Below are positions 1,741 through 58,040 of a DNA stretch of 64,000 nucleotides, one piece after another. The position numbers and the translations under genes are program-made. Origin of the DNA: an uncultured Acidobacteriota bacterium (GTDB taxonomy: Bacteria; Acidobacteriota; Thermoanaerobaculia; Multivoradales; JAHEKO01); NCBI GenBank assembly GCA_963713825.1, contig CAVQNG010000003.1, positions 1,312,001 through 1,376,000 on the forward strand, in the 5' to 3' direction. The notes under the pieces are model-generated. The model was given only the letters and a program-made list of their open reading frames with translations, was not told where the DNA came from and searched no databases. Each line of letters opens with the position of its first letter. Position 1 is the first letter of the stretch.

Positions 1741-2178
1741 TTTGGGCCTATGGGTTGAGACGCCCGGCTCACCGCCGGGTGTTCTTTGAGGGCTTGGGGC
1801 TGAGAGGGCCGATCCGGACCAGGGATCTCCCTCGTCTGCGGCCTCACCCGACCATACCCCTCCGACGAGGTAGACCCATGGCCCGATCTACCAAGTTCTA
1901 GACACATCGAGAATCGGATTACCGACCTGCCCCCTACGCTCCTATTGCCTCTAACGGTGCCAGAGGTTCGTCCGGGTGGTTCGACAGGGGGCGCCGAGTC
2001 GAGCGCGGCGCAAGGTTCTTGATAGGACACAGGTGACGGGGCGCGATGACGAGACGAGGCGGCGGCCCGCCCGTCATAGTCTGAGTAGCCGACGCCGTCC
2101 CCCGGCGGACCACCACACGAAAATCGTTGTTTCTTCAGGACACAGTACCCAAGCCCCAGGACGGGCGGGAGGGCGGGG
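1741..2178. repeat. Composite intergenic repeat mosaic, copy 1 (hairpin unit + module B 1811-1888 + module C 1969-2119 + heptamer/G-rich tail)
   Basis: Aligns by eye with 14311-14801, 29691-30166 (inverted) and 47271-47700 (inverted). Confidence 0.92.
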
Positions 2179-3249
2179 CTACACGTTGAAGCGGAAGTGG
2201 ATGACCTCGCCGTCTTGGACCGGGTATTCCTTGCCCTCGAGACGCAAGAGCCCCTTCTCCCGGCAGGCGGTGAGAGTGCCGAGATTCAGCAGGTCCTCCC
2301 AAGGCACCACCTCGGCCCGGATGAAGCCGCGCTCGATGTCGCTGTGAATGGCCCCTCCAGCTTGCCGAGCCAGCGTGCCGAGACGCACCGTCCAGGCCCT
2401 GACCTCGTCCTCGCCAACGGTGAAGAACGAGATCAAACCGAGCAGCTCATAGCTGGCGCGGATAACACGGTTGAGACTCGGCTCCCTCAACCCCAGATCC
2501 ACCAAGAAATGGATCTGGTGCTCGGCGTCGAGATGGGAGATCTCCTCCTCGATGGGAGCGCTCACCGTAACGACCTGCGCACCTGATGGGACTTCAATGA
2601 CGGGGTTCTCGGCAGGGCCTTCTACCAGAACAGCCTCGTCGACGTTGATCACCAGCAGCAGAGGTTTCGCTGAGAGCAGTTGAAATCCCCGCAAGCGCAG
2701 CTCGTCCTCGTTCGAAAGCTCCAGGGAGCGCAGCGGGCGCTCGTCCTCCAAGGCCGGCAGGATGATCTCGGCGAGCAGTGATTGCTCTCGTTTCTCATCT
2801 GTGGACAGACCGCGCTTCGCGCCCTGTTCCAACCTGGCGATACGTCGCTCGACGATCTCGTGGTCGGCCAGAATGAGCTCGAGGTCGATGATCGCGACGT
2901 CCCGAGCCGGATCTACCGCACCCTCCGAGTGCAGGATCTCTGGCTCCTCGAAGGCCCTGACGACATGGGCCAGAGCGTCCACCTCCCGAAGTCTCGCCAG
3001 GTCGAGGCTCTCCGCACTGCCTCCCTTCTTGAGACCGGGAATGTCCACGTAGGTTACCGTGGCAGGAGTGAATTTCTTCGGCTGATAGTGCTCCCGCAAG
3101 CGAATGAGCCGAGGGTCCGGAACCGTCGCGATGCCGACGTTGGTCTTGGTCGAAGTCGAGTACCGGTCGGTGGCCTGATGGGAGGCCGTCAGAATATTGA
3201 ACAGCGTCGTCTTGCCGACCTTGGGTAGTCCGATGATTCCTACTTCCAT
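2179..3249 (-). CDS. ychF: Ribosome-binding ATPase YchF
   Basis: 'GIIGLPKVGKTT', 'VDIPGL', TGS domain 'AGGAIHSDIERGFIRAEV', C-terminus 'GKEYPVQDGEVIHFRFNV'. Start taken at MEVG. Confidence 0.95.
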   Translation of the reverse strand: MEVGIIGLPKVGKTTLFNILTASHQATDRYSTSTKTNVGIATVPDPRLIRLREHYQPKKFTPATVTYVDIPGLKKGGSAESLDLARLREVDALAHVVRAFEEPEILHSEGAVDPARDVAIIDLELILADHEIVERRIARLEQGAKRGLSTDEKREQSLLAEIILPALEDERPLRSLELSNEDELRLRGFQLLSAKPLLLVINVDEAVLVEGPAENPVIEVPSGAQVVTVSAPIEEEISHLDAEHQIHFLVDLGLREPSLNRVIRASYELLGLISFFTVGEDEVRAWTVRLGTLARQAGGAIHSDIERGFIRAEVVPWEDLLNLGTLTACREKGLLRLEGKEYPVQDGEVIHFRFNV

Positions 3250-3432
3250 GGGAGAGAACCTCGTTGAGCGGTGTTGTTCGAGGGAGCCTGCAACAGCCGA
3301 GGAGGGCGAAGGATACACCAAACCAGCTCGACACCCTTTTGGACACTGCCTGCTGGAGTCGGTATCCTGACACCAGAAGTTCCTGATCAGACGACCCGCT
3401 CGAGCTCCAAAGACACCGCATAGGGAGAAGTC

Positions 3433-5688
3433 ATGAGAATGAGACCACCAAGCCCCTTTAGGCTTTCAGCCATCACTGTGTTCGTCGTCCTGGCGCTGTT
3501 TGGAGCTCGCTCCGCTCGTACGACCGAAACCGAAGCATGGCCTCGGGAGATCGAGACCCAGAAGGGCCTCGTAGTGATGTATCAACCCCAGATCGACAGC
3601 CTCGAAGGCAACATTTTGCATGGCCGGGCAGCGGTATCGGTGACAAGGACGGGGGAATCCGAACCGATCTTCGGTGCGGTCTGGCTGGAGAGTCGAATAG
3701 CAACCGACCTGGATACTCGGGTTGTCGAGTTCGAAGAGATTCGGGTTCCCAGGGTACGTTTTCCCGATGCGACACCCGATCAGGAGCAGGCACTCATCGA
3801 TTTATTGGTTCAGGAGATGCCCACTTGGAACATCGACCTGTCTCTCGACCGGCTGAGTGCAGCGCTCGATCTCGCCGAGAGGCAGACCCTGACGGCGGAA
3901 GGCTTCGACGACTCTCCCCCGAAGATCCTGTTCAGGCAAGAGCCGACGGTCCTGGTGACCGTTGACGGCGAACCCCAGTTGAGAGAGTTGGGGGACTCAG
4001 GGGTCCAGGGTGTGATCAACAGTCCGTTCCTGATGGCTCAAGATCCCAAGGACAAAGCCTCCTACTACCTCTATGCGGGAGCCGATACCTGGTACAAGGC
4101 GCCGGCTGTCGAAGGTCCCTGGCAGTTGACCTCGAAGGTGCCACAGCAGATCCAGCAGCTCGAGCCCGAGGAGGAGGAGCTGGACTCCGAGGAGGTTGCC
4201 GAAGGCCCAAGCACCCCACCGGCCATCGTGGTGAGCACGGAGCCAGCCGAGCTTATCGTTACCGATGGCCCGATGCAGTTCAGCCCTCTGGCTGGCGGTG
4301 AGCTTCTCGTCGTGACGAACTCGGAGAGCGATCTGCTGCGCGAAGTGGCCAGCCAGGAGATTTATGTCCTCTTGTCAGGCCGCTGGTATTCGGCTCGCTC
4401 CGAGGCAGGGCCGTGGGAGTTCAGGCGCCCCGACGAGCTACCGGAGAGCTTTGCCAGAATCGACCCGGACTCGGACTACGGCTACCTGCTCGTCTGGGTT
4501 GCAGGCACCGAGATGGCGACAGAGGCCGCCCTTGATGCCGCGGTCCCGCAGACCGCAGCCATCAAGCGGGATGCGACGATCCAGGTCGACTACGATGGCG
4601 AACCAAAGTTCGAGCCCGTCGAGGAGACAGCGCTCTACTACGCGGTCAATACGGAGTCTCAAGTCCTTCGATCCGGCAGCCAGTACTTCTGTGTCCAGGA
4701 GGGTGTGTGGTACGTCGCAGGCAGCGCGCAGGGACCCTGGGCGGTAGCCACCGAGGTGCCCGAGGAGATCCGCTCCATTCCGCCTTCGAGCCCGGTGTAC
4801 AACACCAAATATGTCTACATCTACGACACGACCCCGGAAGTGGTCTACGTCGGCTACTACCCCGGGTACACTTCCAGCTACATCTACCACGGAGTTCCGG
4901 TCTACGGCACCGGTTGGTACTACCGGCCCTGGTGGGGCCCCTACCATTACTACCCGAGATACCGGACCTGGGGCTTCAACGTGCGCTACAACCCCTGGTA
5001 CGGCTGGAGCTTTGGCCTGAGCTATTCGACCGGACGCTTCACGTTCTCGATCGGCTACGGTGGACGTGGTTGGTGGGGACCTGGAGGCTATCGGGGCTAC
5101 CGCCACGGCTATCACAGGGGCTGGCACCACGGTTACCGGGCGGGGACCCGAGCCGGGTATCAGGCGGGCTACCGTTCCGCCAAGCGGGATTCAGCCCGCA
5201 ACATGTATCAACGTCAGGGGAATGCCAACAGGGTGGCCCACACTTCGGGAACCAGGCCTGGCGCGGGCACGGCACAAGCTAGATCGCCGAATGTGTCGAA
5301 CCGGGCGAACAACGTCTATACCGACAAGAACGGCAACGTCTTTCGGAAGCAGCAGGACGGTAGCTGGCAGCAACGGGACGGTGGAAACTGGAAGGCAGCC
5401 GACATGAGTGGGGCAGCTGGCTCCCGGGAGGCGGCAAACAAGCCCTCGACCGGCACTCGCCCGACCGATCGGAGCGCCCCTTCCACCGGAGCTGTGGGTA
5501 CTCAACAGCAGAAGCCGAGGACAAGTACCGGGGGCACGAAGCAGCAGAAGCCGAAGACGAGCACTGGACAGTACGGTGGCAGCAGCAATCTGAATCGCGA
5601 CGCCAGTGCGCGGCAGCGAGGCAACCAGCGCGCCAGGAGCGCCCCTCGAGGTGGTGGCGGTCGCGGCGGTGGAGGCCGGCGGCGCTAG
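3433..5688 (+). CDS. Secreted protein with Tyr/Trp-rich region and Gly/Arg-rich low-complexity tail
   Basis: RBS GGAG, signal peptide, repeated 'W..A...GPW' units, C-terminus ending RGGGGRGGGGRRR. Confidence 0.8.
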   Translation: MRMRPPSPFRLSAITVFVVLALFGARSARTTETEAWPREIETQKGLVVMYQPQIDSLEGNILHGRAAVSVTRTGESEPIFGAVWLESRIATDLDTRVVEFEEIRVPRVRFPDATPDQEQALIDLLVQEMPTWNIDLSLDRLSAALDLAERQTLTAEGFDDSPPKILFRQEPTVLVTVDGEPQLRELGDSGVQGVINSPFLMAQDPKDKASYYLYAGADTWYKAPAVEGPWQLTSKVPQQIQQLEPEEEELDSEEVAEGPSTPPAIVVSTEPAELIVTDGPMQFSPLAGGELLVVTNSESDLLREVASQEIYVLLSGRWYSARSEAGPWEFRRPDELPESFARIDPDSDYGYLLVWVAGTEMATEAALDAAVPQTAAIKRDATIQVDYDGEPKFEPVEETALYYAVNTESQVLRSGSQYFCVQEGVWYVAGSAQGPWAVATEVPEEIRSIPPSSPVYNTKYVYIYDTTPEVVYVGYYPGYTSSYIYHGVPVYGTGWYYRPWWGPYHYYPRYRTWGFNVRYNPWYGWSFGLSYSTGRFTFSIGYGGRGWWGPGGYRGYRHGYHRGWHHGYRAGTRAGYQAGYRSAKRDSARNMYQRQGNANRVAHTSGTRPGAGTAQARSPNVSNRANNVYTDKNGNVFRKQQDGSWQQRDGGNWKAADMSGAAGSREAANKPSTGTRPTDRSAPSTGAVGTQQQKPRTSTGGTKQQKPKTSTGQYGGSSNLNRDASARQRGNQRARSAPRGGGGRGGGGRRR

Positions 5689-7013
5689 GGTATGGCCAAC
5701 GTCCAGCGACGGGTATCGCCGGATTCGACCCCGTCGACGAAAATGACGTCTAGGCCCTCGTAGGCGCCGATATCGAAAGCCGGACCCAAAGGTCGGGGCG
5801 TGCCCTCGAGGTCTGTCAGGACTTGCGTCAGGGTTTCGCCGTTGTCGAGGGCAGGACTACCCTCTCGAAGATGGAAATCACCGCCCGGGTCGATGAAGAG
5901 GGCTGCCGGTGAAGACCGGAGTGAGTCCTGATCGTGGCCGGTCTGTGCTCTCCATTCCGCAAGGCTCAGGACCGTGTCGCCATCATCCACGGTGAAGCGA
6001 TCCATGACCACATTGTGATCGGAGCTGAATCCGGCAAGGGAGTCAGCGGTGACGGAGACGCTGCCACGGAACGAATGGTAGTTGTAGAAGACGTTGTTGC
6101 GCACCCGGTTGTCGGTGGAGCTGTTCTTGATGTTGAGGGCCCACCGACCATCGTCGGCGACGATGACTGTGTTGTTGTAGACGTGGTTGCCTGTCGAAGC
6201 AGCGCCACCATCGATTCTGTAGAGCGAGATGCCACTCGCATGATTGTCGAAGAGCAGGTTGTTGCGGATGATGGAGCTCTGGACCCCATCCATATTGATG
6301 CCAGAGCCTCCCCCCAGACCGTTGCCGTAGATGGTGTTGTTCTCGACTACGGCTTCACTGATGATGCCGTCCCCACCCTGTGAGGCATCTCCATTCATGT
6401 GAATGCCATTGGCGCGGTTGTCCCAGATCCGGTTGCCTCGGATCGTCGGTCTGTCGCCACTATTGCTGACATAGATCCCGTGCTCGTCGCCACTGTTGGA
6501 GGTGTGATTCGACTCGATCAACAGGTCGTCGCAGAATCCGGTGAAGATGCCCCAACGTCCGTTACCGTCCAGGCGATTGCCCCGAAGAACAACGTTCTCG
6601 CATAGAACGGCGCGGATTCCAGCCCGCGTCCGGCCGTTGATGTGCAGGCCCTCGACGACAAAGTGGCTGGCACCTTCGAGGTTGATGCCGTCGGGCGTGT
6701 GCGGATTGTCGTCGTCGATCTCGACGGTCTCGCCAGGAAAGGCCTTTACAGTGATGGGCAGGGCGACCGTACCTGAAGTCGTGAAGTGAGCGCCGGCGAA
6801 ACTTCCCGCTCTCAGAAGTACAGTGTCTCCGGGCTGGATCACGCCGGCTGCGTGCTGCAAGGTCGCCCAGGGACTTCCCAGGGTTCCAGAATTGGAATCG
6901 CCTCCGGCTGGCGGGGGAGCGACGTAGTAGGTGGCGGCGCCGAGGCTCACTGGAGGCAAGGCGGCTACCAGAATTCCTGCCAGCAACGAGAACAACCCCG
7001 TAGAATGCGCCAT
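5685..7013 (-). CDS. Secreted right-handed parallel beta-helix protein
   Basis: 'TYYVAP...G.D.N.G...PWATLQHA', Asn-rich beta-helix repeats, 'DIGAYE', terminal 'IFVDGVESGD..W'. Start uncertain (7013 or 7040). Confidence 0.85.
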   Translation of the reverse strand: MAHSTGLFSLLAGILVAALPPVSLGAATYYVAPPPAGGDSNSGTLGSPWATLQHAAGVIQPGDTVLLRAGSFAGAHFTTSGTVALPITVKAFPGETVEIDDDNPHTPDGINLEGASHFVVEGLHINGRTRAGIRAVLCENVVLRGNRLDGNGRWGIFTGFCDDLLIESNHTSNSGDEHGIYVSNSGDRPTIRGNRIWDNRANGIHMNGDASQGGDGIISEAVVENNTIYGNGLGGGSGINMDGVQSSIIRNNLLFDNHASGISLYRIDGGAASTGNHVYNNTVIVADDGRWALNIKNSSTDNRVRNNVFYNYHSFRGSVSVTADSLAGFSSDHNVVMDRFTVDDGDTVLSLAEWRAQTGHDQDSLRSSPAALFIDPGGDFHLREGSPALDNGETLTQVLTDLEGTPRPLGPAFDIGAYEGLDVIFVDGVESGDTRRWTLAIP

Positions 7014-8965: not shown

Positions 8966-10489
8966 CTACAGCTGGGCCTCGGGGCGAAGCGCCTCATCGG
9001 TGGCGCGACCCAGGCGCATGACGACTTCGGGAAAGGCTTCGATGTCCTCCAACGAAGTGCGAAAGTTGACCACGCAGATGCGCAGGGCGAATCGCTCCTG
9101 GATGATGGCGTTGGAAAGATAGATCTCGCCCGAGCGCTCGATGCGAGCCAGGATCTCCTGATTCAAATCGTTGAGATAGGAACGCACCGGCTCTGTCTCG
9201 GAACGGTCGAGGAGATCGTGCGGAACATAGCGAAAAGTCGTAATGCTCAAATTCTGCGACAGGGCCTCGATCTCAGGGTAGTCGGTCAGCAGGTCGTGCA
9301 AGGCTCTGGCCAGTTGGATGTCGTCTCGAATCATCTGCACATAGCCGGAGCGGCCCACCTGCTGCAGAGCGAGCCAGACCTTGAGGGCCCGAAAGCCGCG
9401 CGAGTTCTGCAGTCCGTATTCGAAGTAGTTCGTGGCCAGCTCGCCAAAGTGATAGTACGGCGCACCATGTGCGAAGGCACCTCGTAGCGTTTCGGGATCC
9501 CGCACCAGGGCGCAGCCTGCTTCCAAGGGAGCGTAGAGCCACTTGTGTGGATCCACCGCGACGGAATCGGCCTCCGGCATGCCCGCGAGCAGGTCAGCAG
9601 CCTCGGGAACCGCGGCGGCCAGAGCGCCGTAGGCACCATCGACGTGGAACCAGAGGTCTCTCTCACGGCAGATCTCTGCGAGCTCCGCGAGAGGGTCGAT
9701 TGCCCCAGTGCTGACGGTACTGGCCGTGCCGACCACCAGGAACGGTTGATCACCCTCCGCAACATCCTTGTCGAGTTGGCTTCTCAGATCCGCCAGGTCC
9801 AGGCGTGATTCGTCGTCGACTCGAATCGAACGTAGCGAGTCGGTCCCGAGTCCCGAGATATCCATCGCCTTGTTGATCCAGGTGTGGACCTCGGTCGAGG
9901 CGTAGACGCGCATCGGACCCCCCGGGTTGGCGTCGAGGCCGCGGCCTTGCAGGTCCCAGCTCGCCTTCGAGGTGCGGGCGGCAAGGAAGCAGACGATATT
10001 CGCCAGGTTGCCGCCGCTGACCAGCACCCCGCCAGAGCTCTCGGGATAGCCGATGAGCTCGGCGATCCAGCGCACCGTCTGGGCCTCGATCTCCGTGGCC
10101 ATCGGTGCGATGGGCCAGGCTCCGACATTGGGGTTGACCGCGGCGGCGAGCAGATCTCCCAGCATGCCGATGGGGGCAGGCGCGGAGGTGATGTAGCCGA
10201 GGAAACGGGGATGGCCGTTGAAGAGGGAGTGATCGAAGAGTAGCTTGGTGGTCTCCTCGAGTAGTGCTGTCGCGTCGGTACCGTGCTCCGGAAGTCGACG
10301 AGAGGCCTTCAGCGCGTCACGTATGGTTCCGGGGCTCTCCGCCGGGGTGACGGGTCGGTCTGGCAACGAGCCCAGTAGCTCGGCGATTCGGTCGACGACC
10401 TGATGGCCGACTCGACGGAACTCGTTGGGACTCATATCCAGTGGAGCGCAACGGTTCTTCAGTCGATCCAGTTGATCACTACTCGTCAT
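8966..10489 (-). CDS. PLP-dependent group II (aromatic-type) amino acid decarboxylase
   Basis: 'HPRFLGY', 'WFHVDGAYG', 'DPHKWL' (PLP lysine), 'RGFRALKVW'. Confidence 0.92.
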   Translation of the reverse strand: MTSSDQLDRLKNRCAPLDMSPNEFRRVGHQVVDRIAELLGSLPDRPVTPAESPGTIRDALKASRRLPEHGTDATALLEETTKLLFDHSLFNGHPRFLGYITSAPAPIGMLGDLLAAAVNPNVGAWPIAPMATEIEAQTVRWIAELIGYPESSGGVLVSGGNLANIVCFLAARTSKASWDLQGRGLDANPGGPMRVYASTEVHTWINKAMDISGLGTDSLRSIRVDDESRLDLADLRSQLDKDVAEGDQPFLVVGTASTVSTGAIDPLAELAEICRERDLWFHVDGAYGALAAAVPEAADLLAGMPEADSVAVDPHKWLYAPLEAGCALVRDPETLRGAFAHGAPYYHFGELATNYFEYGLQNSRGFRALKVWLALQQVGRSGYVQMIRDDIQLARALHDLLTDYPEIEALSQNLSITTFRYVPHDLLDRSETEPVRSYLNDLNQEILARIERSGEIYLSNAIIQERFALRICVVNFRTSLEDIEAFPEVVMRLGRATDEALRPEAQL

Positions 10490-10603
10490 GTCGGGAGTCT
10501 CCTTCTCCGGTGCCTATCGAGCGCGAATATATCCGATCCTCGAAGGAGCGAGGGCGATCGCCATACCTGTCGTTGGTCAGATCCTCCAGTAGAATCCAGC
10601 CTC

Positions 10604-12361
10604 ATGCGCCGCCTATCGCGATTCACTTTGCTGGCTTCGGTCCTACTTGCTTCGGCCTGTGGTCTTGGTGATTCCGCTGAAGAGGGAGTCGCATACTACG
10701 ACTTGGTGGGCAATCGGGGCTCGTGGGCTGCCGTAGGGACGAATCCCTCGCTCCAGCCTGTCGTCGACCCTGCAGAGGGGATTGTCTTTCTGCCGGCTGG
10801 GGCCAGCGTCGACTACCTCTTGTTCGCAGAGCCCAAGAGCACGTTGCGGGTGGAGGGAGTCACTCTGCGAGGTGCCAGCACCCGACTCGATGTGCGATTG
10901 GAGACCGACGGCGATGGAGACCGTGAGTTGGCGTCGTTCCGGCGATCAAAGGAAGGCGTAGCCGTTTCTCTTGAGCTGAAATCGCGGACAGCGGTTCGCC
11001 TCAGCCTGGCCTCAGTGGCGAGCGACGACGAACCAGGTAGTGGTGTGGTTCTCAGAAGCCCCGCGCTGTGGGCGTCTTCCGAGGTAAGGGTCTCCACACC
11101 GGCCCCGGTCGGAGAAGCAAGGCCGCGCCGCGCCAACGTTCTGATCTACCTGGTGGACACCCTGCGGTCCGATCGCCTGGGGATTCTCGGCTATCCACGG
11201 CCGATCACACCGAATATCGATCGTTTTGCCGAGAGCTCCAGCCTGTTTCTCAACGCCATTGGTCAGTCCTCGTGGACCAAGGCGTCCGTAGGATCGATCT
11301 TCACTGGGCTGTGGCCGCCGGCGCATGGCGCTATCGGCTGGAAACACAAGCTGTCGAGTGAGATCGAGACCCTGGCCGAGAGGCTCCAGGCGGATGGTTA
11401 TCGAACGGCCGCGTTCGTTACCAACCCCAATGTGGTCAGAACCTTCGGCTTCACGCAGGGCTTCGATGAATTCACTCGCAAGCTCAAGCGTCCCTCCGAT
11501 GAGGTCAACCAGATGGTCTTCGATTGGTTCGAAGGAAGAAAGGACGAGGATCCGTTCCTGCTCTATGTACACACGATGGATCCCCATGCACCGTATGCTC
11601 CACGCGAGCCCTTCAAATCGAAGTTTGCTCCGACGGCCGACGAGATCCCTCAGTGGCAGCCCCGTTGGCGTTGGCCGATGGAGGCACTGCCCTATCTGTC
11701 CGACCTCTATGATGCGGAGATCGCGTTCAACGATGCGAGCTTCGGCCAGCTGCTCGGCTTTCTCGAAGAGCGCGGGCTCTACGATGACACCTTGATCGTC
11801 TTCGTCTCCGATCATGGAGAGGAGTTCAAGGAGCACGGCCGATGGCGACATGGCGCCAACCTGCATGCGGAGACCCTGAACTTCCCGTTGATCGTCAAAT
11901 TCCCCGACCAACAGGATGGAACCACAGTCGAAACGGCTGTGCAGCACATCGATCTTCTGCCGACGATCCTCGCCAGTGTGGGTCTGGAGATCCCGGAGGC
12001 GTTGGAGGGCCGTGACCTGGCTCCCATCGCAATGGCCGGCTTGGCGCCTGGCGAGACGGTCTCGTCGGGGATCTACTCTCACTTGCGCCTGGGAAGTGGT
12101 CCGCTGAACCACAGCCTCGTGAAGGGACAGTGGAAGCTGATTCGCAAACTGCGAGACGAGGGCTGGGAGACATCGCTGTTCGATTGGCGGCAGGATCCTG
12201 CCGAAACCCGGGACCTGGTGAGTGAAAGGCCGCTTCTGGCAGCCGTGTTGTCAGCGATGATCGACGACAAGGTGGCGAGCCTCGAACAGAGCGCAGCCGA
12301 AGAGGTCGTTCTCAGCGAGGAGCTCGAAGAGGATCTCAGGGCGCTGGGCTATCTGGAGTAG
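10604..12361 (+). CDS. Sulfatase-like (alkaline phosphatase superfamily) lipoprotein, Thr-type
   Basis: Lipobox LASAC, 'VDTLRSD', 'WTKASVGSIFTG', 'DPHAPY', 'SDHGEEF', terminal 'LRALGYL'. Confidence 0.85.
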   Translation: MRRLSRFTLLASVLLASACGLGDSAEEGVAYYDLVGNRGSWAAVGTNPSLQPVVDPAEGIVFLPAGASVDYLLFAEPKSTLRVEGVTLRGASTRLDVRLETDGDGDRELASFRRSKEGVAVSLELKSRTAVRLSLASVASDDEPGSGVVLRSPALWASSEVRVSTPAPVGEARPRRANVLIYLVDTLRSDRLGILGYPRPITPNIDRFAESSSLFLNAIGQSSWTKASVGSIFTGLWPPAHGAIGWKHKLSSEIETLAERLQADGYRTAAFVTNPNVVRTFGFTQGFDEFTRKLKRPSDEVNQMVFDWFEGRKDEDPFLLYVHTMDPHAPYAPREPFKSKFAPTADEIPQWQPRWRWPMEALPYLSDLYDAEIAFNDASFGQLLGFLEERGLYDDTLIVFVSDHGEEFKEHGRWRHGANLHAETLNFPLIVKFPDQQDGTTVETAVQHIDLLPTILASVGLEIPEALEGRDLAPIAMAGLAPGETVSSGIYSHLRLGSGPLNHSLVKGQWKLIRKLRDEGWETSLFDWRQDPAETRDLVSERPLLAAVLSAMIDDKVASLEQSAAEEVVLSEELEEDLRALGYLE

Positions 12362-13287
12362 GCAGCTCGATCGTTGGCCAGGGCGGGGATTGCCGTCAAC
12401 ACCTGCCGAGCCGCCGGAACCGAGAGGCTGTTACCGACCAGGCGCCAGGCGACCGACGTCGGAAGATCCGGCGGCAGTAGGAAGTCGGCAGGAAATCCCA
12501 AGAGCCGAAGTATCTCCTGTGGTGAGAAGCGACGTAGCCCGGACGGTGTCTCGAGGTAGGAGCCGCTGCGGACCGGCGAACGCCCATAGGCCGAGGTGAA
12601 GCAGGTAGCGACCGCTGCGGAATCCTTGGCGTTCACGATGCTGATTGCGTGACCGTACCTGTCGATCAGTGCCTCATCGACCCAGAGATCGGCTGGGGGC
12701 TCGAGGTCGAGATACGCTTCGAGCGGTCGAGGCTCCCGCGGCATTTGCGACATGGGTCCCAACGGCTCGCGTCCCGCCACGAGGAAGAGGCGCCGCCTCC
12801 GATTGGGAACTCCGAGCTCCGTTGGGCATAGCACAACCTCCTGGACCGCATAGCCGAGATCATCCAGAGCCGAACGCAGCACGGAGTGAGTCTGAGAACC
12901 CCTGAACCCCGGGACGTTCTCGAGTGCCAGGTAGGAGGGTGGAGTTTGGCGGAGGCAGTCGATCAATCGGAGGAAGCTCCGCGTTCTGGGGTCCTCGGTG
13001 TCTCGCTGTAGCCCGCGGACGGTAAACGGCTGACAGGGTGGCGATAGCCACCACAAGTCGGCATCGCGCCGTTGAAGGTCGTCGGCTGATACGAACTCGA
13101 GATTGACCGCCACTGTCGTGTCCGGGAAGTTCGACCGATAGACTTCGAGGCCCGCATCGTTGATGTCCATGGCTGCAACGACTTCGGTACCGCGGGGCAG
13201 GGCAGCGCAGCAACCCCCGATTCCACAGTAGAGCTCCAAGACTCGAAATGGTGGCTTGGCCCCGGTATCCAGATCAGGACTATCCAT
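12349..13287 (-). CDS. C5-cytosine methyltransferase, Dnmt2/TRDMT1-like (probable tRNA methyltransferase)
   Basis: 'RVLELYCGIGG', 'SPPCQPF', 'LENV', 'PNRRRR', Dnmt2-type 'CFTSAY', 'RRFSPQEILRLLGFP', 'RLVGNSL'. Confidence 0.85.
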   Translation of the reverse strand: MDSPDLDTGAKPPFRVLELYCGIGGCCAALPRGTEVVAAMDINDAGLEVYRSNFPDTTVAVNLEFVSADDLQRRDADLWWLSPPCQPFTVRGLQRDTEDPRTRSFLRLIDCLRQTPPSYLALENVPGFRGSQTHSVLRSALDDLGYAVQEVVLCPTELGVPNRRRRLFLVAGREPLGPMSQMPREPRPLEAYLDLEPPADLWVDEALIDRYGHAISIVNAKDSAAVATCFTSAYGRSPVRSGSYLETPSGLRRFSPQEILRLLGFPADFLLPPDLPTSVAWRLVGNSLSVPAARQVLTAIPALANDRAAYSR

Positions 13288-13327
13288 CGCTCGACTCTGT
13301 GGCTTGGGAGATCGAGTGGGCACTCCG

Positions 13328-14290
13328 CTACTCCTGAATGCCTGCCACCCCTTGCACCCACGATGCTGTGGTCGGTTCACCTTGAAACAGGGAGCGGTCG
13401 ACATCGCGGGTGATCGCCCAGCGATGCAACCAGGTAAGGCCGCCAGGTCCGGTATAGGTGTCCTCAGAGGAGTACGCGGGGTCCTTGAGAGCCTCGTCCA
13501 GATCGATGAATCGATAGCCACGTTGTCGCAGCGACACCACGAGCTCACCGAGATGATGGGCGTTGAGAGCGTTGGCGTGCAGCAGCAAGACCTGTGGAAT
13601 CTCGCGATCGAACAGCTCCTTGCTTTGGCCCTCGTAGTACCTGACCAGCCGCATCATGTAGTCGATGTACTCCCGAGCCAGGCGGGTCTGGAGCTCTTGA
13701 TCCCGGCGGTCGAGTGCCTCGTCATAGGCGCGGGCGAAGATCCACTCTGAGTTGTCGATAGTGATCGGTGCCACCCGGTAGCCTCGTTGAGCGAGGAAGT
13801 CTTCGACAGCCAACTTCGTTTCGAGGTCTAGCCCTGTGTGGAGGAACGGATGACGAAAATATCGTAACGCGCTGCCTCGCGCTGCTAGGAGCTCACCCGA
13901 TATCTGCTCACCGCGAACCAGGTCCTGCTTGAACTCATCGAGGACTACCCGGTGCAGGTCTGGATGAGAGAAGGTGTGATTTCCCAACTCCAGGCCTGCG
14001 TCCAGCCAAAGCTCCAGCAATCGAACCCGTGCTGCATCCACCGTCTCGTCGACATGGAGCTTGTTCTCGTTGACAAAACCGATGGCCGGTATCCCCTGGT
14101 CGCTCATCAATCTCACGAGGTACTGGTTGATTGCGGAGATCCTCGCCTCTGGAAGGCCATGTGCGCGCTGTGCGGGGAGATCGTCGAAAGTAATGACCAT
14201 CTGCCGATCCACTACCGGCTCGCTGGCGATCACAATTGCTGAACCTGCACCCAGGACTATGAACAATAGAACTGCAGCCGTCGGTTTCAT
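13328..14290 (-). CDS. Polysaccharide deacetylase family protein, secreted
   Basis: 'ITFDDLP', 'GNHTFSH', 'YFRHPFL', 'LLLH'; signal peptide. Confidence 0.9.
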   Translation of the reverse strand: MKPTAAVLLFIVLGAGSAIVIASEPVVDRQMVITFDDLPAQRAHGLPEARISAINQYLVRLMSDQGIPAIGFVNENKLHVDETVDAARVRLLELWLDAGLELGNHTFSHPDLHRVVLDEFKQDLVRGEQISGELLAARGSALRYFRHPFLHTGLDLETKLAVEDFLAQRGYRVAPITIDNSEWIFARAYDEALDRRDQELQTRLAREYIDYMMRLVRYYEGQSKELFDREIPQVLLLHANALNAHHLGELVVSLRQRGYRFIDLDEALKDPAYSSEDTYTGPGGLTWLHRWAITRDVDRSLFQGEPTTASWVQGVAGIQE

Positions 14291-14310
14291 GGCTCGTGAG
14301 CCTAGCACTG

Positions 14311-14801
14311 TGAGGGGTTGAGGCAGCTGGGCCTTCCTTCCAGTGGATATTGAGGGCTTGGGGGATCATGAGCCCGTCACTCCTCCGGCCGACCTTCGAG
14401 GCTTGGGGGTCGAGGCGTCCGATCGAACCAGGGATCTCCCTCGTCTGCGGCCTCACCCGACCATGCCCCTCCGACGAGGGAGACCCATGGCCCGATCTGC
14501 CTCCTTCGAGAAATAGTAAGAATCAAATTTCTGTCTAGCCCCCTACGCCCCTTCTGCCTTCAATGGTGCCCGAGGTTCGTTCGGGTGGTTCGACAGGGGG
14601 CGCCGAGTCGAGCGCAGCGCAAGAGCCACGAGAGAGCACAAGAGATGGGGCGCGATGACGAGACGAGATGGAGGCCCCCCGTTGCAGTTTGAGTAGCCTC
14701 CATCGTCCCCTTGCGAACCACTCGGATGGGCCTCTACCCGAAGCGAATTGTCTTTTCAGGACTCAGGGCGCAAGAAGGGTGGGGGAGAGAGGCCAAGGGG
14801 G
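14311..14801. repeat. Composite repeat mosaic, copy 2 (module B 14421-14497, module C 14578-14728)
   Basis: Same modules, order and orientation as copy 1. Confidence 0.92.
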
Positions 14802-29690: not shown

Positions 29691-30166
29691 TCCCACCCAC
29701 CTGCCCGTCCTGGGGCTTGGGTCCTGGGTCCTGAACAGGTAACCGTTTCTCGAAGAGGTACGTCCGAGTGGCTCGCAGGGGGACAGCGTCGGCTACTCAG
29801 GCTGCAACGGGGGGGCCGCCACCTCGTCTCGTCGTCGCGCCTCATCTGTTGTGCTCTCTCGTGGCTCTTGCGCTGCGCTCGACTCGGCGCCCCCTGTCGA
29901 ACCACCCGAACGAACCTCTGGCACCGATGAGGGCCTAAAGGCTTAGGGGCGTAAGGGCGTAGGGAGCGAGCCAGCAATCCGATTCTTACTGCGTCTCGAA
30001 GGTGGTAGATCGGGCCATGGGTCTCCCTCGTCGGAGGGGCATGGTCGGGTGGGGCCGCAGACGGGGGAGATCCATGGCCCGATCGGGCGTCTCAAATCCC
30101 CAGCCTCAAAGACAGGCTGGTGGTACAACGGACTCCTCAACCCCTGGTCGGGTGGGTGGGTTAGGG
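29691..30166. repeat. Composite repeat mosaic, copy 3, inverted (module C 29761-29912, module B 30008-30084)
   Basis: Reverse complement of copies 1 and 2. Confidence 0.92.
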
Positions 30167-36498: not shown

Positions 36499-36712
36499 TG
36501 AGGGTTGAGGCGGTCGCGTCCTATCTCGCGACCGATCTTTGAGGGCTTGAGGGTTGAGCCAGCTGTCGTGCCTCCAGCTGGCCTTTGAGGGCTCGGGTCC
36601 TGGGTCATGAACAGATGACTGCGTGGTAACGCCGGACCCTGGACATCCGTCGTCCCGCTTGCCATAGCGGCCTTGAGCCGTTGTTCCCCCCTAGGCCCTA
36701 GGGGCCCCTAGA
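36499..36712. repeat. Repeat mosaic: two tandem hairpin units + heptamer tail + CTAGGGG octamers
   Basis: GGGTTGAG-[hairpin]-TTTGAGGGCT twice, then GGGTCCTGGGTCATGAACA, as at 29719 and 47319. Confidence 0.85.
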
Positions 36713-39962: not shown

Positions 39963-39991
39963 GGGGGCTTAGGGGCTTAGGGGCTTGGGGG
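39963..39991 (+). repeat. Tandem (TTAGGGGC)n octamer, G-quadruplex-capable
   Basis: GGGGG CTTA GGGG CTTA GGGG CTT GGGGG, overlapping the stop of the convergent hydrolase gene. Confidence 0.8.
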
Positions 39992-47270: not shown

Positions 47271-47700
47271 CTCGGGGGTTGAAGCGTCCGGCGTTCCTGC
47301 AGCCGATCTTTGGGGCTTGGGTCCTGGGTCCTGAACAAACAATCATGTCCGTGTGGAGGCCCGTCCGGGTGGTCCGCAGGGGGACGGCGACGGCTACTCG
47401 GACTGCAACGGGGGGCCGCCGCCTCGTCTCGTCATCGCGCCTCATCTCCTGTGCCCTATCAAGGCTCTTGCGCCGCGCTCGACTCGGCGCCCCCTGTCGA
47501 ACCACCCGAACGACCCTTTGGCACCAACAGAGGGACATAAGGGCCTAGAGCAGTAGGGGAGTAAGGGGTGTCGATCGGCTGTTCCTCCAAGCCCCAAAGG
47601 CCGGCCGACACGGAGTGCGGCCGGTTCAACCCCCAGGTCCTCAAAATCGTCCGGAGGTACGACCGGACGCCTCAACCTCCAAAGACCCAAGCCCCAGGAC
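47271..47700. repeat. Composite repeat mosaic, copy 4 (module C 47362-47512 inverted, hairpin units on both sides, no module B)
   Basis: Aligns by eye with copies 1-3. Confidence 0.92.
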
Positions 47701-48303: not shown

Positions 48304-49773
48304 TCAATTGAGATAGCCGAGGGCCCGCAGAGCATTGAGGGTCTCTTCGGAGTAGGCCTCCGATTCTGGATCGGCGACACCCGTTTCGGGCGTGCTCTCC
48401 ATCCACGTCGAAAGAGCCTGCCAGAGTCGATCGAACTCCTCTTCATGCTGGCCCGCGAGATTCTCGGCTTCCAGTGGGTCGGACTGTAGATCGTAGAGCT
48501 CGAAAGCTGGCGCCAACTGTCGGTCGTTTCTCTCGACAGCAGGATGGAAGACGAGCTTCCAACGGCCGTCTTGGACGGAGAAGTAGTGACGCCAGAGCAT
48601 CTGTCCACCGCCGGCCTCCGAGAAGGCGTACCGAAACGGCTCTAGTGCCGCTGTTTCGACGGCTCCCATCGGGCCGAGGAACGGTGTCAGGCTGGATCCC
48701 TCGAGCCCTTCTGGTCCTGCCGTGATCTGCAGGAGATCGCGAAGGGTCGGGTACAGATCCAGCAACTCGGCCGGGTGATCGACCCGCCGGCCTGCACGGG
48801 CCACCCCAGGGTAGGTGATGAAGAGCGGCACATGGGCCGTCGTGTTGTACGGCTCGCGCCCATGTTCGAACAGCTCGTCGTGCTCTCCCAGGCCCTCACC
48901 GTGATCGGAGGTGAAGATCACCAGGGCTCCTTCGAGCAGGCCGAGCCCTTCGAGATGGTCGAGGATGGCGCCGATGTGGGAGTCCGTTACCAGGATGTTG
49001 GCATCGTACTTGGCGATGTAGGAGCCGAGCCGGCGTTCGTCGCCCAGAGCTCTTGCCGGGGGCAGGTCGGCCCCGATCGACTGATCTTGGGTGTCGAAGG
49101 AGTCGCCGAGAAACGGGTCGGAGGCACCCTCCGGTAGCAGATAGGGAGCGTGGGGATCGGAGTAGTGAAGCCAGACGAACAACCGCTCCGAGTCGGCGTG
49201 GCGCTCGAGAGCGGGAATGGCCAGCTGATTGACCAGGGGGGCACCGACCCATTTGCGGTGCTCGACCGGATCGTCACTGACAGCACCTCCCAGCCTCCAG
49301 GTTTCCAGAAACTCGTCGAAGCCCCGATTCCAACCCAGCTCTGCCGAGAGGACGGCATTGGAGACCACGCCCAGGGTGCTGTAGCCAGCAGACTGGAAGA
49401 GCTCGGGCAGGGTCAGGTACTCGTCCGGAATCTGCTGGGCCGCCCTGTGGGTCAAACCCGTTGTCTTGGGATAGCGGCCCGTAAAGATGGAGGCCAAAGA
49501 AGGTCCGGTCTTCGGCCATTGTGCGACTGCGCGGGCAAACGTCACTCCCTGCTCTGCCAACTTGTCGAGGGCCGGAGAAGTCTGTCGGGGATAGCCGTAG
49601 ATTCCCATGTGGTCGGCACGCAGTGTGTCGACCGTGATCAGGAAGACTCTCTTTGGAGGTTCTGGCTCGGAGGGCTGCCGGTTGCAAGCCGCGAGGCCGA
49701 GGAGCAGGATCGCGGTGAGGCATCCGGCGACCCTCGAGTAGGCGCGCTTTGTTGGGGTTCTGGTGAGTCTCAT
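48304..49773 (-). CDS. Sulfatase-like lipoprotein, Thr-type
   Basis: LAAC lipobox, 'VDTLRADH', 'TGPSLASIFTG', 'DPHAPY', 'SDHGE', 'LRALGYL'. Confidence 0.88.
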   Translation of the reverse strand: MRLTRTPTKRAYSRVAGCLTAILLLGLAACNRQPSEPEPPKRVFLITVDTLRADHMGIYGYPRQTSPALDKLAEQGVTFARAVAQWPKTGPSLASIFTGRYPKTTGLTHRAAQQIPDEYLTLPELFQSAGYSTLGVVSNAVLSAELGWNRGFDEFLETWRLGGAVSDDPVEHRKWVGAPLVNQLAIPALERHADSERLFVWLHYSDPHAPYLLPEGASDPFLGDSFDTQDQSIGADLPPARALGDERRLGSYIAKYDANILVTDSHIGAILDHLEGLGLLEGALVIFTSDHGEGLGEHDELFEHGREPYNTTAHVPLFITYPGVARAGRRVDHPAELLDLYPTLRDLLQITAGPEGLEGSSLTPFLGPMGAVETAALEPFRYAFSEAGGGQMLWRHYFSVQDGRWKLVFHPAVERNDRQLAPAFELYDLQSDPLEAENLAGQHEEEFDRLWQALSTWMESTPETGVADPESEAYSEETLNALRALGYLN

Positions 49774-51170
49774 AGATAACCGAGGCTCCTCAGCTCCTCG
49801 AGCTCATCTTCATCCAAGATGGCGGTCTCGCCGTCCTGACCCGACTGTCGCAGCTCACTCATGGCCCTCTGGTGCCCGACGAGCTGCTCGGCCATCTGTC
49901 CGCAGAGATCGACGCAGGCTGCCGTTCGAGGTGTTTGCTCCTCGGGGTCGGTGCCGAGGTCGTAGAACTCCAGGTGGCCATCGTGAAAACGAATCAGCTT
50001 GTGGGTACTGCTCCGCACTGCGACTGCGTCGGCGCTCTCGGCGAAGATCCAACGCTCGGCTGCGGGCTCACCCAGCATGAGCGGGACCAGGCTTTGGCCT
50101 TGCGCCTGTGGCACCGGGGGAAGGTTGGCGAGCTCCAACAGGGTCGGCATCAAATCGACGAGCCCAGCGGGAGCATCGACCTTTGGGATCGGGGTGCGGC
50201 GGCTCTCCGGCAGACGGAACACCAGGGGAACCCGGATCACCTCGTCGTAGGGAGCGAAACTGTGCAATAGCTTGTCGTGCTCGAGGAAGCCTTCGCCATG
50301 ATCGGACGTCACGACGACGATCGTGTTTTCGTAGAGATCCATTGCCTGAAGGGCACGCATGAGATCGTCGATGGCGGCATCGACGAAGGCCACTTCCTGG
50401 TCGTAGCGCGCGACGAGTGCGTCGAGGTCGGACTCTGACTTGAGGGTCTCGATCCAACCTGCAACACGGTTCCCTCGCTGGGGTGGCTCTGAAGTCATGC
50501 GCAGCGGGCCGAATGCTTCCTGCTTTCCCTCGAGTCGGTTGGTGTAGGGCCAGTGGACATCCAGGTAGTGCAGGTAGGCGAAGAAGGGAGCTGTGCTGGC
50601 GCCCTCGAGTTGCTTCAGGAGCTTTTGGTTCAACTTGCCGGCACCCAGGCCTCGAACAGCCTCGAAATGGTCGAACCCTTGAGCAAAGCCGAAACGGGAC
50701 TGGAGATGGACCTGGTTGAGAACACCGATGGTCGAGTAGCCGGCCGCCTGGAACCTCTCGGCCAGAGTGTCGTATCCCTCGTAGAGAATATCGGTCCTGT
50801 ATGAGTCACCCTCCTGAATACCGACGCGATCGATGCCGTGCTGACCTGGATAGAGCGACGTGAAAAGAGTGGCGATCGAAGGCTTGGTCCAGGTGGAGTG
50901 CGCGAAGGCGGACGTGAAGGTCACGCCCTCCTCTGCCAGTTGGTCGATCGCCGGGGAGGTCGGTAGACCGTAGCCACCGATTCCGAGGTGATCGGCTCGC
51001 AGGGCGTCGATCAGGATCACCAGAACATTGGGTGGTGGCCCCGGATCGATCTCCTGGGCGTCGCGGCCGCAGGCGAGCAGTGACAGTAGGACGAGCGCTG
51101 TGAGCCAGCCTGGGCGGATGTCGCCGATCGGCCAAAACGGACTTGGGAACCTCGACGTCTTGGAGGTCAT
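49770..51170 (-). CDS. Sulfatase-like lipoprotein, Thr-type
   Basis: LLAC lipobox, 'IDALRADH', 'TKPSIATLFTS', 'DVHWPY', 'SDHGE', 'LRSLGYL'. Confidence 0.88.
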   Translation of the reverse strand: MTSKTSRFPSPFWPIGDIRPGWLTALVLLSLLACGRDAQEIDPGPPPNVLVILIDALRADHLGIGGYGLPTSPAIDQLAEEGVTFTSAFAHSTWTKPSIATLFTSLYPGQHGIDRVGIQEGDSYRTDILYEGYDTLAERFQAAGYSTIGVLNQVHLQSRFGFAQGFDHFEAVRGLGAGKLNQKLLKQLEGASTAPFFAYLHYLDVHWPYTNRLEGKQEAFGPLRMTSEPPQRGNRVAGWIETLKSESDLDALVARYDQEVAFVDAAIDDLMRALQAMDLYENTIVVVTSDHGEGFLEHDKLLHSFAPYDEVIRVPLVFRLPESRRTPIPKVDAPAGLVDLMPTLLELANLPPVPQAQGQSLVPLMLGEPAAERWIFAESADAVAVRSSTHKLIRFHDGHLEFYDLGTDPEEQTPRTAACVDLCGQMAEQLVGHQRAMSELRQSGQDGETAILDEDELEELRSLGYL

Positions 51171-51361: not shown

Positions 51362-52750
51362 ATGCACAGGTCAGCACAAATCTTGGGATTGGTCATTGTG
51401 ACCCTGGTCGCCGGCTGTGGTCGCGAGGAAGTGACTCAGGGTCCACGCCTCCAGAGCTCGGCTGCGGGCTGGAACCTGATTCTGATCAGTGTAGATACCG
51501 TGCGGGCCGACCGCTTGGGCGCCTACGGATATGCCGAGCGCCCATCCAGTCCCAACATCGATGCGCTGCTGGCGTCAGGAGCCAAATTTCAACGTGCCAT
51601 GGCTCCCAGAGCCCTCACCTGGCCTTCGATGGCCTCGGTGCTCACGGGGCTCTATCCATCCGGCCACGGGCTGATCTCGAACGGGTACGAGTTCTCCGAC
51701 GCCACCCGCACGTTGCCGAAGATCTTGGGTGATGCCGGGTACCAGACGGGGGCTGTGCTCAGCAATATGTGCCAGGCGAACCACCAGGGATGGGAGAGCT
51801 TCAAGTGCACGGGAGGTAACGACACCCGCGTCAACCGGGTGGCGAAGCAGTGGATCGATGGGATCGAAGACGGGCGGCCATTCTTCCTCTGGGCGCACTA
51901 TTTTGGTGCCCACGCTCCGTACTACAACGGCGGCATCGTGGCCCGCCGGGTGCTGAATCAGTACTACGAAGGTCCGATCGCAGCTAAGAAGAACATGCTC
52001 AACCGGGTGATGCGTGAAGGCCTCGAGCTGAGCGAGGACGACTTGACTCAGTTGGATGCGGTCTATGACGCGGCGGTGATGGGAACCGATCAGTTTGTCG
52101 GTGAGCTGCTGGACTATCTGCGTGAGGCTGGCCGATTGGACAGCACACTGATTGTCTTCGTGGCGGATCACGGGGAGGACCTCTACCAGCACAACGGCTA
52201 CCTCTACCACGCCTGTTCCGTGTACCAGTCGTCCTTGCACGTGCCGCTGGGTTTCGTAGCCCCAGGCGTGCTTCCCGCAGGGGCGACTGTCTCCCAGACC
52301 GTCGAGTTGATCGATGTGCTGCCTACCATTCTGGAGCTGCTCGCACTGGACGAAGAGGGTGAGCTCCACGGCAGGTCCCTGATTCCCTATCTGGAGTGGC
52401 CCGACTCCAGTATTGAAGGTGAGCCGGCTTTCTCCGAATACGACGACACTCGGATTCACACCGTTCAAGTCGGTGACTGGAAGCTTGTAGACAACCCGGA
52501 TGCGGTCCTGCCGGTCTGTTTCGCGGGCGTCCCGGAGGACTTCTACCCGATTGCGGAGGTGGAGCTCTACGATCTCTCCGAGGATCCGGGCGAGACCGTC
52601 AATCTGGCTTCGAAGTACCCAGAGAAGGTGGCTGAGATGCGGGCATTGATTCGGCAGCGCTTTGCGTCGCTGCCCCGCAACATCGAGCATCAGGAGATCC
52701 CAGAGGAGCTGAAAGAGCAACTGGAGGCTCTTGGCTACGTGGCCAACTGA
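51362..52750 (+). CDS. Sulfatase-like lipoprotein, Thr-type
   Basis: VAGC lipobox, 'VDTVRADR', 'TWPSMASVLTG', 'AHAPY', 'ADHGE', 'LEALGYV'. Confidence 0.88.
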   Translation: MHRSAQILGLVIVTLVAGCGREEVTQGPRLQSSAAGWNLILISVDTVRADRLGAYGYAERPSSPNIDALLASGAKFQRAMAPRALTWPSMASVLTGLYPSGHGLISNGYEFSDATRTLPKILGDAGYQTGAVLSNMCQANHQGWESFKCTGGNDTRVNRVAKQWIDGIEDGRPFFLWAHYFGAHAPYYNGGIVARRVLNQYYEGPIAAKKNMLNRVMREGLELSEDDLTQLDAVYDAAVMGTDQFVGELLDYLREAGRLDSTLIVFVADHGEDLYQHNGYLYHACSVYQSSLHVPLGFVAPGVLPAGATVSQTVELIDVLPTILELLALDEEGELHGRSLIPYLEWPDSSIEGEPAFSEYDDTRIHTVQVGDWKLVDNPDAVLPVCFAGVPEDFYPIAEVELYDLSEDPGETVNLASKYPEKVAEMRALIRQRFASLPRNIEHQEIPEELKEQLEALGYVAN

Positions 52751-57900: not shown

Positions 57901-58040
57901 TAGGGCAGTTGTGGCTTAGGGGCCTAGGGGAATGGGAGGGGGCCCCACTGCCGCAAAGGTAGGCCGGAGGGACGACGGACTCCTCAACCCCCAAGCCCTC
58001 AAAGACCGGCCAAAGGTACGCCGGCCGCCTCATCCCCTTA
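57901..58040. repeat. Repeat mosaic: TAGGGG octamers + two hairpin units (minus strand)
   Basis: Contains CTCAACCCCCAAGCCCTCAAA, the reverse complement of the TTTGAGGGCTTGGGGGTTGAG linker. Confidence 0.8.

Follow-up and report, generated by a model that had tools for sequence, protein, structure and literature searches.

The described elements that come closest to the one reported here are the structured interspersed repeats of the bcr1 and ERIC type. As summarised in PMC3184786, bcr1 is ~155 bp long, sits at non-conserved locations, is transcribed and carries compensatory changes that keep its RNA structure, and ERIC is co-transcribed and affects mRNA decay. Here we analyse module C, a repeat present in four copies in a 64-kb stretch of DNA (hereafter the window: positions 1,312,001 to 1,376,000 of contig CAVQNG010000003.1, assembly GCA_963713825.1) from an uncultured member of the Thermoanaerobaculia (Acidobacteriota), a group known almost only from metagenome bins. 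These copies had been picked out in an earlier note on the same DNA, which proposed either an undescribed structured non-coding RNA (ncRNA) or a repeat of the MITE (miniature inverted-repeat transposable element), ERIC or REPIN kind. Our results support the dispersed-repeat arm of that alternative, with 19 copies at unrelated sites in four genomes, no conserved neighbour and a mosaic of other repeat modules around them. Module C is most likely not a dedicated RNA gene but a new family of small non-coding mobile repeats.

Module C resembles bcr1, as the latter is presented in PMC3184786, in its similar size, in its interspersed, intergenic and non-conserved sites, in the compensatory changes that keep a multi-stem structure and in having no coding capacity. 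It differs from it in several respects. At its ends bcr1 has 5-bp direct repeats, of which none was found in module C, and it is known to be transcribed, whereas module C is known from DNA sequence alone; moreover, bcr1 is drawn as two independent stem-loops instead of the closed three-way junction described below, and the two elements come from different phyla and show no sequence relation. The comparison with ERIC (IRU) and Correia/NEMIS is equally close, since these are, according to PMC3184786, imperfect intergenic palindromes of 100-160 bp, often located at gene 3' ends, co-transcribed and with effects on mRNA processing, and they have in common with module C a long closing helix formed by both ends. 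They are listed as MITEs with terminal inverted repeats (TIRs) and TA duplications, whereas no duplication was seen here, and, unlike in these elements, the interior of module C (its junction and the arms P2 and P3) is conserved as strongly as its ends. Terminal inverted repeats of the MITE type are present in module C as a 28-bp imperfect repeat (the closing helix P1), but their mismatches are all G-T on one strand, which is not required of a double-stranded TIR. This strand-specific G-U bias may be set beside ERIC, for which Wilson and Sharp are said to have given, in 2006, the account that would tell whether such a bias is equally strong there. The BIME of E. coli and the BOX elements of pneumococcus also consist of distinct modules gathered in intergenic clusters with a fixed relative orientation, as does the cluster around module C, but the modules are larger here (47, ~85, ~95 and 172 nt) and have no sequence relation to them.

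Fold and strand specificity of module C

The copies in the window, found at the positions and in the orientations first reported, scored 160.7-188.7 bits (E 4e-32 to 6e-38) against a covariance model (CM) built from 17 copies (Table 1). No fifth copy was found in the 64 kb by a CM search with filters off, the leftover weak matches being the reverse strands of these copies and the neighbouring hairpin module, and the same search ruled out a weak 12-mer lead at 54216-54253 as an extra copy. The four copies, aligned with 20-nt flanks, have a mean column identity of 84% over 190 nt and share an invariant block of 33 nt. The CM matches and the trimmed alignment gave a core of 172 nt; the extent of 151-152 nt proposed earlier was right as to location but fell short of this core by ~10 nt at each end. 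Weaker homology continues beyond the core in a leader of ~25 nt and a tail of ~40 nt, for a total of about 230 nt. Copy 1, whose outer end had been called decayed, has indeed lost 13 nt from the 3' strand of its closing helix.

For the 17 full copies, RNAalifold predicted a three-way junction made of P1, P2 and P3. The closing helix P1 has 28 pairs and the one bulged A, which confirms and extends the end helix of ~22 bp proposed in the earlier note. P2 contains two internal loops with G.A, the first of them a tandem one, and ends in a variable tip of 26 nt. It is separated from P3 by four nearly invariant bases (J2/3), and P3, which joins P1 without a linker, is an arm with a variable loop that tolerates insertion (44 nt in the second copy of locus L002). 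Standard pairs made up 98.1% of the 824 pair cells, compared with 33-52% when the partners were slid by 1-3 columns in the trimmed alignment. Three pairs had changed on both sides, as against 0.3 in shuffled alignments, and none of 500 shuffles reached 3; related sequences can beat shuffles without any structure, and we therefore put weight on the pattern of changes instead. The two-sided changes were all located in P3 and belonged to two separate copies. In copy 2 of the window, pairs 104/140 and 108/136 went from G-C/C-G to A-U and pair 105/139 became U-A, which is the compensatory change first described for this inner helix, and pair 111/133 of locus L005 provided a second independent case. 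Variation in P1 was one-sided only. The description of the element as structured with covariation thus stands for the structure, whereas true two-sided covariation is restricted to P3 in two lineages; likewise, the arm with G.A mismatches that had been noticed in the four copies was predicted by RNAalifold from the 17 sequences, but it is invariant and has no covariation support. A scan for pseudoknots and long-range covariation over 52 variable columns gave nothing beyond the model except one hint, in which columns 77 and 82 (A5) could close a four-base loop (G-C in 4 copies, A-U in 9, G-U in 3, A.A in 1). In locus L004, the 3' end is followed by a partial, inverted duplicate of the leader and 5' end (206-265), through which the closing helix gains ~11 pairs; no other copy has this extension.

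The specificity of this fold for one strand is the strongest result of the analysis. Over the 49 pairs, we counted 120 G-U cells and a single A.C cell; 19 pair columns were polymorphic between Watson-Crick and G-U pairs, and one contained A.C. When the pairs touching the 21 columns fixed by the search pattern (see below) were left out, 15 columns toggled through G-U and one through A.C, and the probability of obtaining at most 1 in 16 if transitions hit both strands alike is about 3 in 10,000. In P1, 10 unforced columns toggled through G-U and none through A.C. The asymmetry is real, and the unforced columns bear out the earlier observation that substitutions keep pairing on one strand only. 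When scored by the CM, the sense strands reached 160-198 bits and the opposite strands 12-41 bits. The fold z-score of one copy was -4.9 for the sense and -1.4 for the antisense strand with RNA parameters, and -3.1 and -1.3, respectively, with DNA parameters; the two energy models show a similar asymmetry and thus do not decide between RNA and single-stranded DNA (ssDNA) as the selected strand. Among dispersed repeats, module C offers a clean case of selection for structure on one strand.

Sequence constraint followed the fold. With the 21 fixed columns excluded, the mean minor-allele fraction was 0.054 at paired positions and 0.036 in J2/3, and it rose to 0.156 at unpaired positions and 0.165 in the P2 tip, indicating that the interior is at least as constrained as the ends. 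The copies did not group by genome: mean identity was 0.856 for the 33 pairs of copies from the same genome and 0.848 for the 103 pairs from different genomes, and 13 of the 17 copies had their nearest relative in another genome.

Relatives and genomic context

Relatives of module C were sought by one exact-pattern scan of 185,579 species genomes (one per species), the pattern being 21 bases taken from the invariant block. The scan returned 14 loci, all of them in three metagenome-assembled genomes (MAGs) titled Thermoanaerobaculia or Acidobacteriota (4, 7 and 3 loci), and a CM search added the second full copy of L002, which is one base off the pattern and carries the 44-nt insertion in its P3 loop. 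The total is 18 full copies and one truncated copy in four genomes, namely that of the window and the three MAGs. The truncated copy (L008:1993-2048) retains the first ~57 nt only, lies between two co-oriented genes and abuts an unassigned open reading frame (ORF) of 131 aa. The related MAGs contain 3, 4 and 8 detectable copies, and the expectation of many more copies per genome, drawn earlier from the density in the window, was not met in them; a contig end lay within 2 kb at 6 of the 14 loci, as expected if the repeat breaks assemblies, so that assemblies probably undercount the copies. Besides such breaks, a practical effect of the element is to seed databases with spurious "hypothetical proteins". 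A profile of a frame that is open by chance on the antisense strand matched 15 proteins among 5.8 billion, of which the two named ones are hypothetical proteins of Thermoanaerobaculia MAGs. Together with the few relatives in the genome scan, this makes the family look narrow. Nothing similar to module C was found in plasmid and phage collections (blastn, "distant" mode).

In Rfam 15, no family matched module C at the gathering score, nor at E up to 1, in the window and all 14 loci; the matches listed at E up to 1 were elsewhere or were sub-threshold hairpin matches. The portions of the literature on repeats of Acidobacteria and Thermoanaerobaculia available to us contained nothing bearing on module C and no repeat or ncRNA family described for Thermoanaerobaculia. 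Within these sources, the element is undescribed, as first suggested.

Gene calls by codon-position GC and Pfam domains of the neighbours placed all 19 copies in intergenic regions, at 19 different sites and beside unrelated, ordinary genes. These encode a sodium:solute symporter, YchF, a polysaccharide deacetylase, a LEA_2 protein, a BNR-repeat protein and a Ser/Thr kinase, as well as an ABC ATPase, a rhodanese, sulfatases, hydrolases and regulators. No flanking similarity was detected between the window and the loci or between one locus and another, with only high-scoring segment pairs of at most 33 bits. Among the 16 contexts that could be classified, 7 were convergent, 4 divergent and 5 tandem, so the varied gene context seen in the window holds for the whole set. 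In the tandem contexts, the element was co-oriented with the genes in 3 of 5 cases (one of them the truncated copy) and anti-oriented in 2. An orientation bias relative to genes is thus not shown, nor is there a clear preference for convergent gene ends, as the junctions of the window themselves comprise about 14 convergent, 14 divergent and 14 tandem ones.

No small conserved ORF was found in the 8 copies examined, in which frames and stops differ and none is hydrophobic; a type I toxin-antitoxin locus was rejected on the same grounds. A tRNA-derived element was rejected as well, ARAGORN having detected 0 genes in the window. A likeness to a sigma-54 -24 box, seen by eye on the reverse strand of the 5' end, was dropped because the spacing to -12 is off by one. 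Two individual sites can be mentioned here. In L002, two direct copies of module C (1974-2144 and 3262-3477), 1.1 kb apart, bracket a single alpha/beta-hydrolase gene (2219-3109). In L014 (1940-1975), ~35 nt separate the beginning of module C from the start codon of a DUF1684 lipoprotein-like gene that runs in the opposite direction, which places the element in the promoter or leader region of this gene.

The selected molecule and the mode of spread

On balance we consider it probable, with modest confidence, that module C is a lineage-restricted non-autonomous interspersed repeat that is moved by an enzyme encoded elsewhere and whose transcript is the selected molecule. The unrelated sites and the lack of grouping by genome suggest repeated movement or exchange of several sub-lineages, and module C would be carried to new sites by an enzyme acting in trans. 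The selected molecule would most likely be the transcript: the fold is branched, its junction and G.A loops are conserved and a peripheral loop tolerates insertion, three features for which we favour RNA. Carried in transcripts that are intergenic or arise by read-through, such a very stable GC-rich fold could act in end protection or in processing, a role reported for repeats of the ERIC and bcr1 type.

Several observations weigh against this reading, some of them against mobility and others against RNA as the selected molecule or against parts of the fold. The autonomous partner that the earlier note had proposed to look for did not appear: neither the window nor the 2 kb on either side of the 15 other copies contained a transposase, reverse transcriptase, TnpB-like or HUH gene, no nuclease gene was found within 2 kb of any of the 19 copies, and no RAYT gene in the 112 kb of DNA examined (window and loci). 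Because of this, we infer mobility only from the unrelated contexts. In L013 and L014, the two isolated copies, inspection by eye revealed no direct repeat that would indicate a target-site duplication, the exact ends not being placeable because leader, tail and neighbouring modules adjoin the core. The junction and loop bases are more conserved than a hairpin recognised by a transposase would need, and the low copy numbers of the MAGs (3, 4, 8) fit a small gene family as well as a repeat. As regards transcription, neither a sigma-70-like promoter (a weak test, as the promoters of this phylum may differ) nor an intrinsic terminator was linked to any of the four window copies, and the anti-orientation of 2 of the 5 tandem copies implies that a role dependent on read-through cannot hold for every copy. 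As regards the fold, 12 of 17 copies have a bulged G or a G opposite G in inner P1, a part of the helix in which pairing is perfect in the window copies; P2 varies nowhere in a testable way and shows no covariation, its 5' strand being fixed by the search pattern; and the 21 pattern columns as a whole are invariant by ascertainment.

Two rivals have to be ranked behind the RNA repeat, the main one being an ssDNA substrate of an HUH enzyme and the next a stand-alone small RNA family. In the former, which we regard as a real if minor possibility, the same dispersed element would be selected as folded ssDNA and moved in trans by an HUH/Y1 transposase of the RAYT or IS200/IS605 TnpA type, as are REP/REPIN and PATE. 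This would account for the one-strand specificity with its G-T-compatible changes, for the strand asymmetry that persists under DNA parameters (z -3.1 vs. -1.3), for the want of a promoter or terminator at the window copies and for the neighbouring palindromic modules in opposite orientation, which resemble BIME and REPIN layouts. Like the IS200/IS605-derived PATEs and the guide-RNA scaffolds of TnpB and IscB, module C is non-coding, structured, of similar size and acts as one strand; unlike them, it has no tnpA, tnpB or iscB gene adjoining any of its 19 copies, its partner hairpin lies on the opposite strand, and, in contrast to TnpB/IscB scaffolds, no hypervariable guide-like segment stands beside it. 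It also shares with REP/REPIN the strand-specific palindromic units and inverted neighbours, and in the REP/REPIN-RAYT systems, as presented in PMC3116915, PMC4690160 and PMC3733652, the single-stranded form is the recognised substrate. However, the REPs described in PMC3733652 are palindromes of 20-40 bp with a terminal GTAG or CGTC tag, whereas module C is a branched 172-nt three-way junction with conserved junction bases and without terminal GTAG, this motif occurring only inside the P3 loop. The two arms of a REPIN are copies of one another, whereas the partner hairpins B and E of module C (see next section) are unrelated to it in sequence, and neither the window nor any of the 14 loci contained a Y1 transposase gene.

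The second rival, which we judge unlikely, is a new class of structured ncRNA encoded by a stand-alone gene in multiple copies; the RNA would act in trans, by protein binding or catalysis, and each gene copy would be kept by host selection. The three-way junction with its nearly invariant junction bases and G.A loops, the variable peripheral loops including the 44-nt insertion, and the conservation of paired and junction positions, 3-4 times that of unpaired ones, all agree with such a gene, as do the low copy numbers in MAGs, the excess of singleton changes of G-U type over those of A.C type in the pair table and the absence of a matching Rfam family. On the other hand, a gene of this kind sits badly with four window copies that have neither a sigma-70 promoter nor an intrinsic terminator, with 19 of 19 copies without conserved neighbour or synteny, and with copies embedded in repeat mosaics. 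A truncated copy (L008) and a broken closing helix (copy 1) are tolerated, and four copies per 64 kb would be unusual.

A combined possibility, distinctly unlikely in our view, is that C is a functional structured RNA class, either catalytic or a protein-recruiting scaffold, that spreads as a mobile unit and is transcribed divergently from the RNA of its partner hairpin (B or E), A-B/E-C then being a gene-less two-RNA mobile cassette. If true, it would add a new class of structured RNA. We find it very improbable that the fold is needed for the propagation of the element itself, as in a self-cleaving ribozyme or an RNA-mobilised SINE-like retroelement. The three-way junction with a conserved core and the dispersal to unrelated sites with the whole fold kept, and not the ends alone, would be in line with this, but no Rfam ribozyme family matched even at E up to 1, neither the window nor the loci contained a reverse transcriptase gene, and no poly-A-like or other mark of retro-insertion was seen. 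Finally, a cis-regulatory leader (riboswitch or attenuator) of a downstream gene is hardly tenable, as the earlier note had already argued from the varied context: in the four divergent contexts (window copies 2 and 4, the first copy of L002, and L010) the element does lie 74-293 nt upstream of a co-oriented start codon, but the downstream genes are unrelated (LEA_2, ABC ATPase, alpha/beta hydrolase, GreA-like protein), 7 copies lie between convergent gene ends and 2 are antisense to both neighbours, contradicting a constant position.

The mosaic around module C

Module C, read here as a mobile RNA repeat, is usually part of a mosaic in which the order is A, then B or E on the opposite strand, short arrays, C, a tail and an inverted A (Table 1). 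The A-B-C-tail block of ~430 nt is kept as a unit in window copies 1, 2 and 3 and in L005 and L009, i.e., in three genomes. L013 and L014 carry C without A, B or E, showing that C can stand alone.

Module B is a hairpin of ~80 nt with a stem of ~30 bp, always located 70-90 nt upstream of C. On the strand opposite to C it has 3-8 G-U pairs and on the other strand 0. It is also present in L005 and L009, and partial copies of B open L004 and L012. Module E, a hairpin of ~95 nt without Rfam match above threshold, replaces B in six loci (L003, L006, L007, L010, L011 and the first copy of L002), with folding energies of -60.6 to -67.7 kcal/mol on the strand opposite to C and -40.6 to -59.1 kcal/mol on the other. 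All 5 copies of B and all 6 of E thus fold better, and with more G-U pairs, opposite to C. On this account we rejected the mosaic of ~430 nt as one large RNA: the cluster consists of strand-specific units whose orientations are fixed and opposed. A homology of E with the P1 arms of C, hinted at by CM matches of 15-29 bits, was not supported, the z values for arm similarity being about 2 and about 0, no better than the wrong-strand control. An arrangement of this kind, in which module C is paired with another hairpin under selection on the other strand, could reveal the way in which such mosaics originate and spread.

Module A, in which conserved G-rich flanks enclose a short, variable hairpin, is found as single or tandem units and in both orientations; it often borders the cluster, at one end or at both, with the far-side unit inverted. 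Most copies of C are preceded by a C-rich leader of tandem units of 7-8 nt and followed by a tail of heptamer-like units. Short G3/C3-rich arrays of 7-8 nt flank C, including one at 47318-47333, with the G-rich strand opposite to C, and one stands alone at 39964-39991.

Table 1. Copies of module C, their parts and the neighbouring repeat modules (positions in the window unless a locus is named)
Feature	Position	Strand	Remarks
Module C copy 1, core	1956-2116	+	CM 160.7 bits; outer P1 lost 13 nt (3' strand)
Copy 1, parts	P1 5' 1964-1992; J1/2 1993-1994; P2 1995-2053; J2/3 2054-2057; P3 2058-2096; P1 3' 2097-2116	+	
Module C copy 2, intact	14565-14735	+	CM 183.6 bits; compensatory G-C to A-U in P3
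Copy 2, parts	P1 5' 14573-14601; J1/2 14602-14603; P2 14604-14662; J2/3 14663-14666; P3 14667-14704; P1 3' 14705-14733	+	
Module C copy 3, intact	29754-29925	-	CM 188.4 bits; flanked by two genes, both co-oriented with the element
Copy 3, parts	P1 5' 29889-29917; P2 29828-29886; J2/3 29824-29827; P3 29785-29823; P1 3' 29756-29784	-	
Module C copy 4, intact	47355-47525	-	CM 188.7 bits
Copy 4, parts	P1 5' 47489-47517; P2 47428-47486; J2/3 47424-47427; P3 47386-47423; P1 3' 47357-47385	-	
Module B, upstream of copy 1	1810-1889	-	-42.7 antisense vs. -32.9 sense kcal/mol; G-U 5 vs. 0
Module B, upstream of copy 2	14420-14498	-	-50.8 vs. -40.4 kcal/mol
Module B, upstream of copy 3	30007-30085	+	inverted repeat; -60.8 vs. 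-48.5 kcal/mol
Module E	L002:1812-1903		
Module E	L006:1817-1912		
Module E	L007:2118-2212		
Module E	L010:1799-1870		
Module A, ~47-nt REP-like unit	1752-1798	+	outer edge of mosaic
Module A, unit	14315-14363	+	
Module A, unit	47632-47677	-	
Module A, unit	30098-30144		
Module A, wider stretch	14315-14409		
Module A, wider stretch	47560-47677		
Module A, away from C	36532-36616		
Module A, away from C	57943-58037		
C-rich heptamer-like tail, semi-conserved, 3' of copy	2136-2155	+	
C-rich heptamer-like tail, semi-conserved, 3' of copy	14757-14776	+	
C-rich heptamer-like tail, semi-conserved, 3' of copy	29714-29733	-	
C-rich heptamer-like tail, semi-conserved, 3' of copy	47314-47333	-	
7-nt array, tail of copy 3	29707-29733		3.9 copies
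Octamer array, leader directly upstream of copy 3	29930-29961	-	period 8, 4.0 copies

A few features of the window lie outside the mosaic. The only Rfam match in the window at E up to 1 was to the archaeal C/D-box family sR1 (5889-5933); with 20 bits (E 0.8) it fell short of the gathering score of 45 and was taken as due to chance. An ORF with a C-5 cytosine DNA methylase domain (12349-13548) overlaps by ~220 nt the ORF of a polysaccharide deacetylase on the same strand (13328-14308), and one start of the pair is probably miscalled. The window also contains four genes of the sulfatase family (10403-12361, 48304-49773, 49770-51170 and 51362-52750), three of them adjacent to one another, and a fifth gene of this family adjoins the element in L011.

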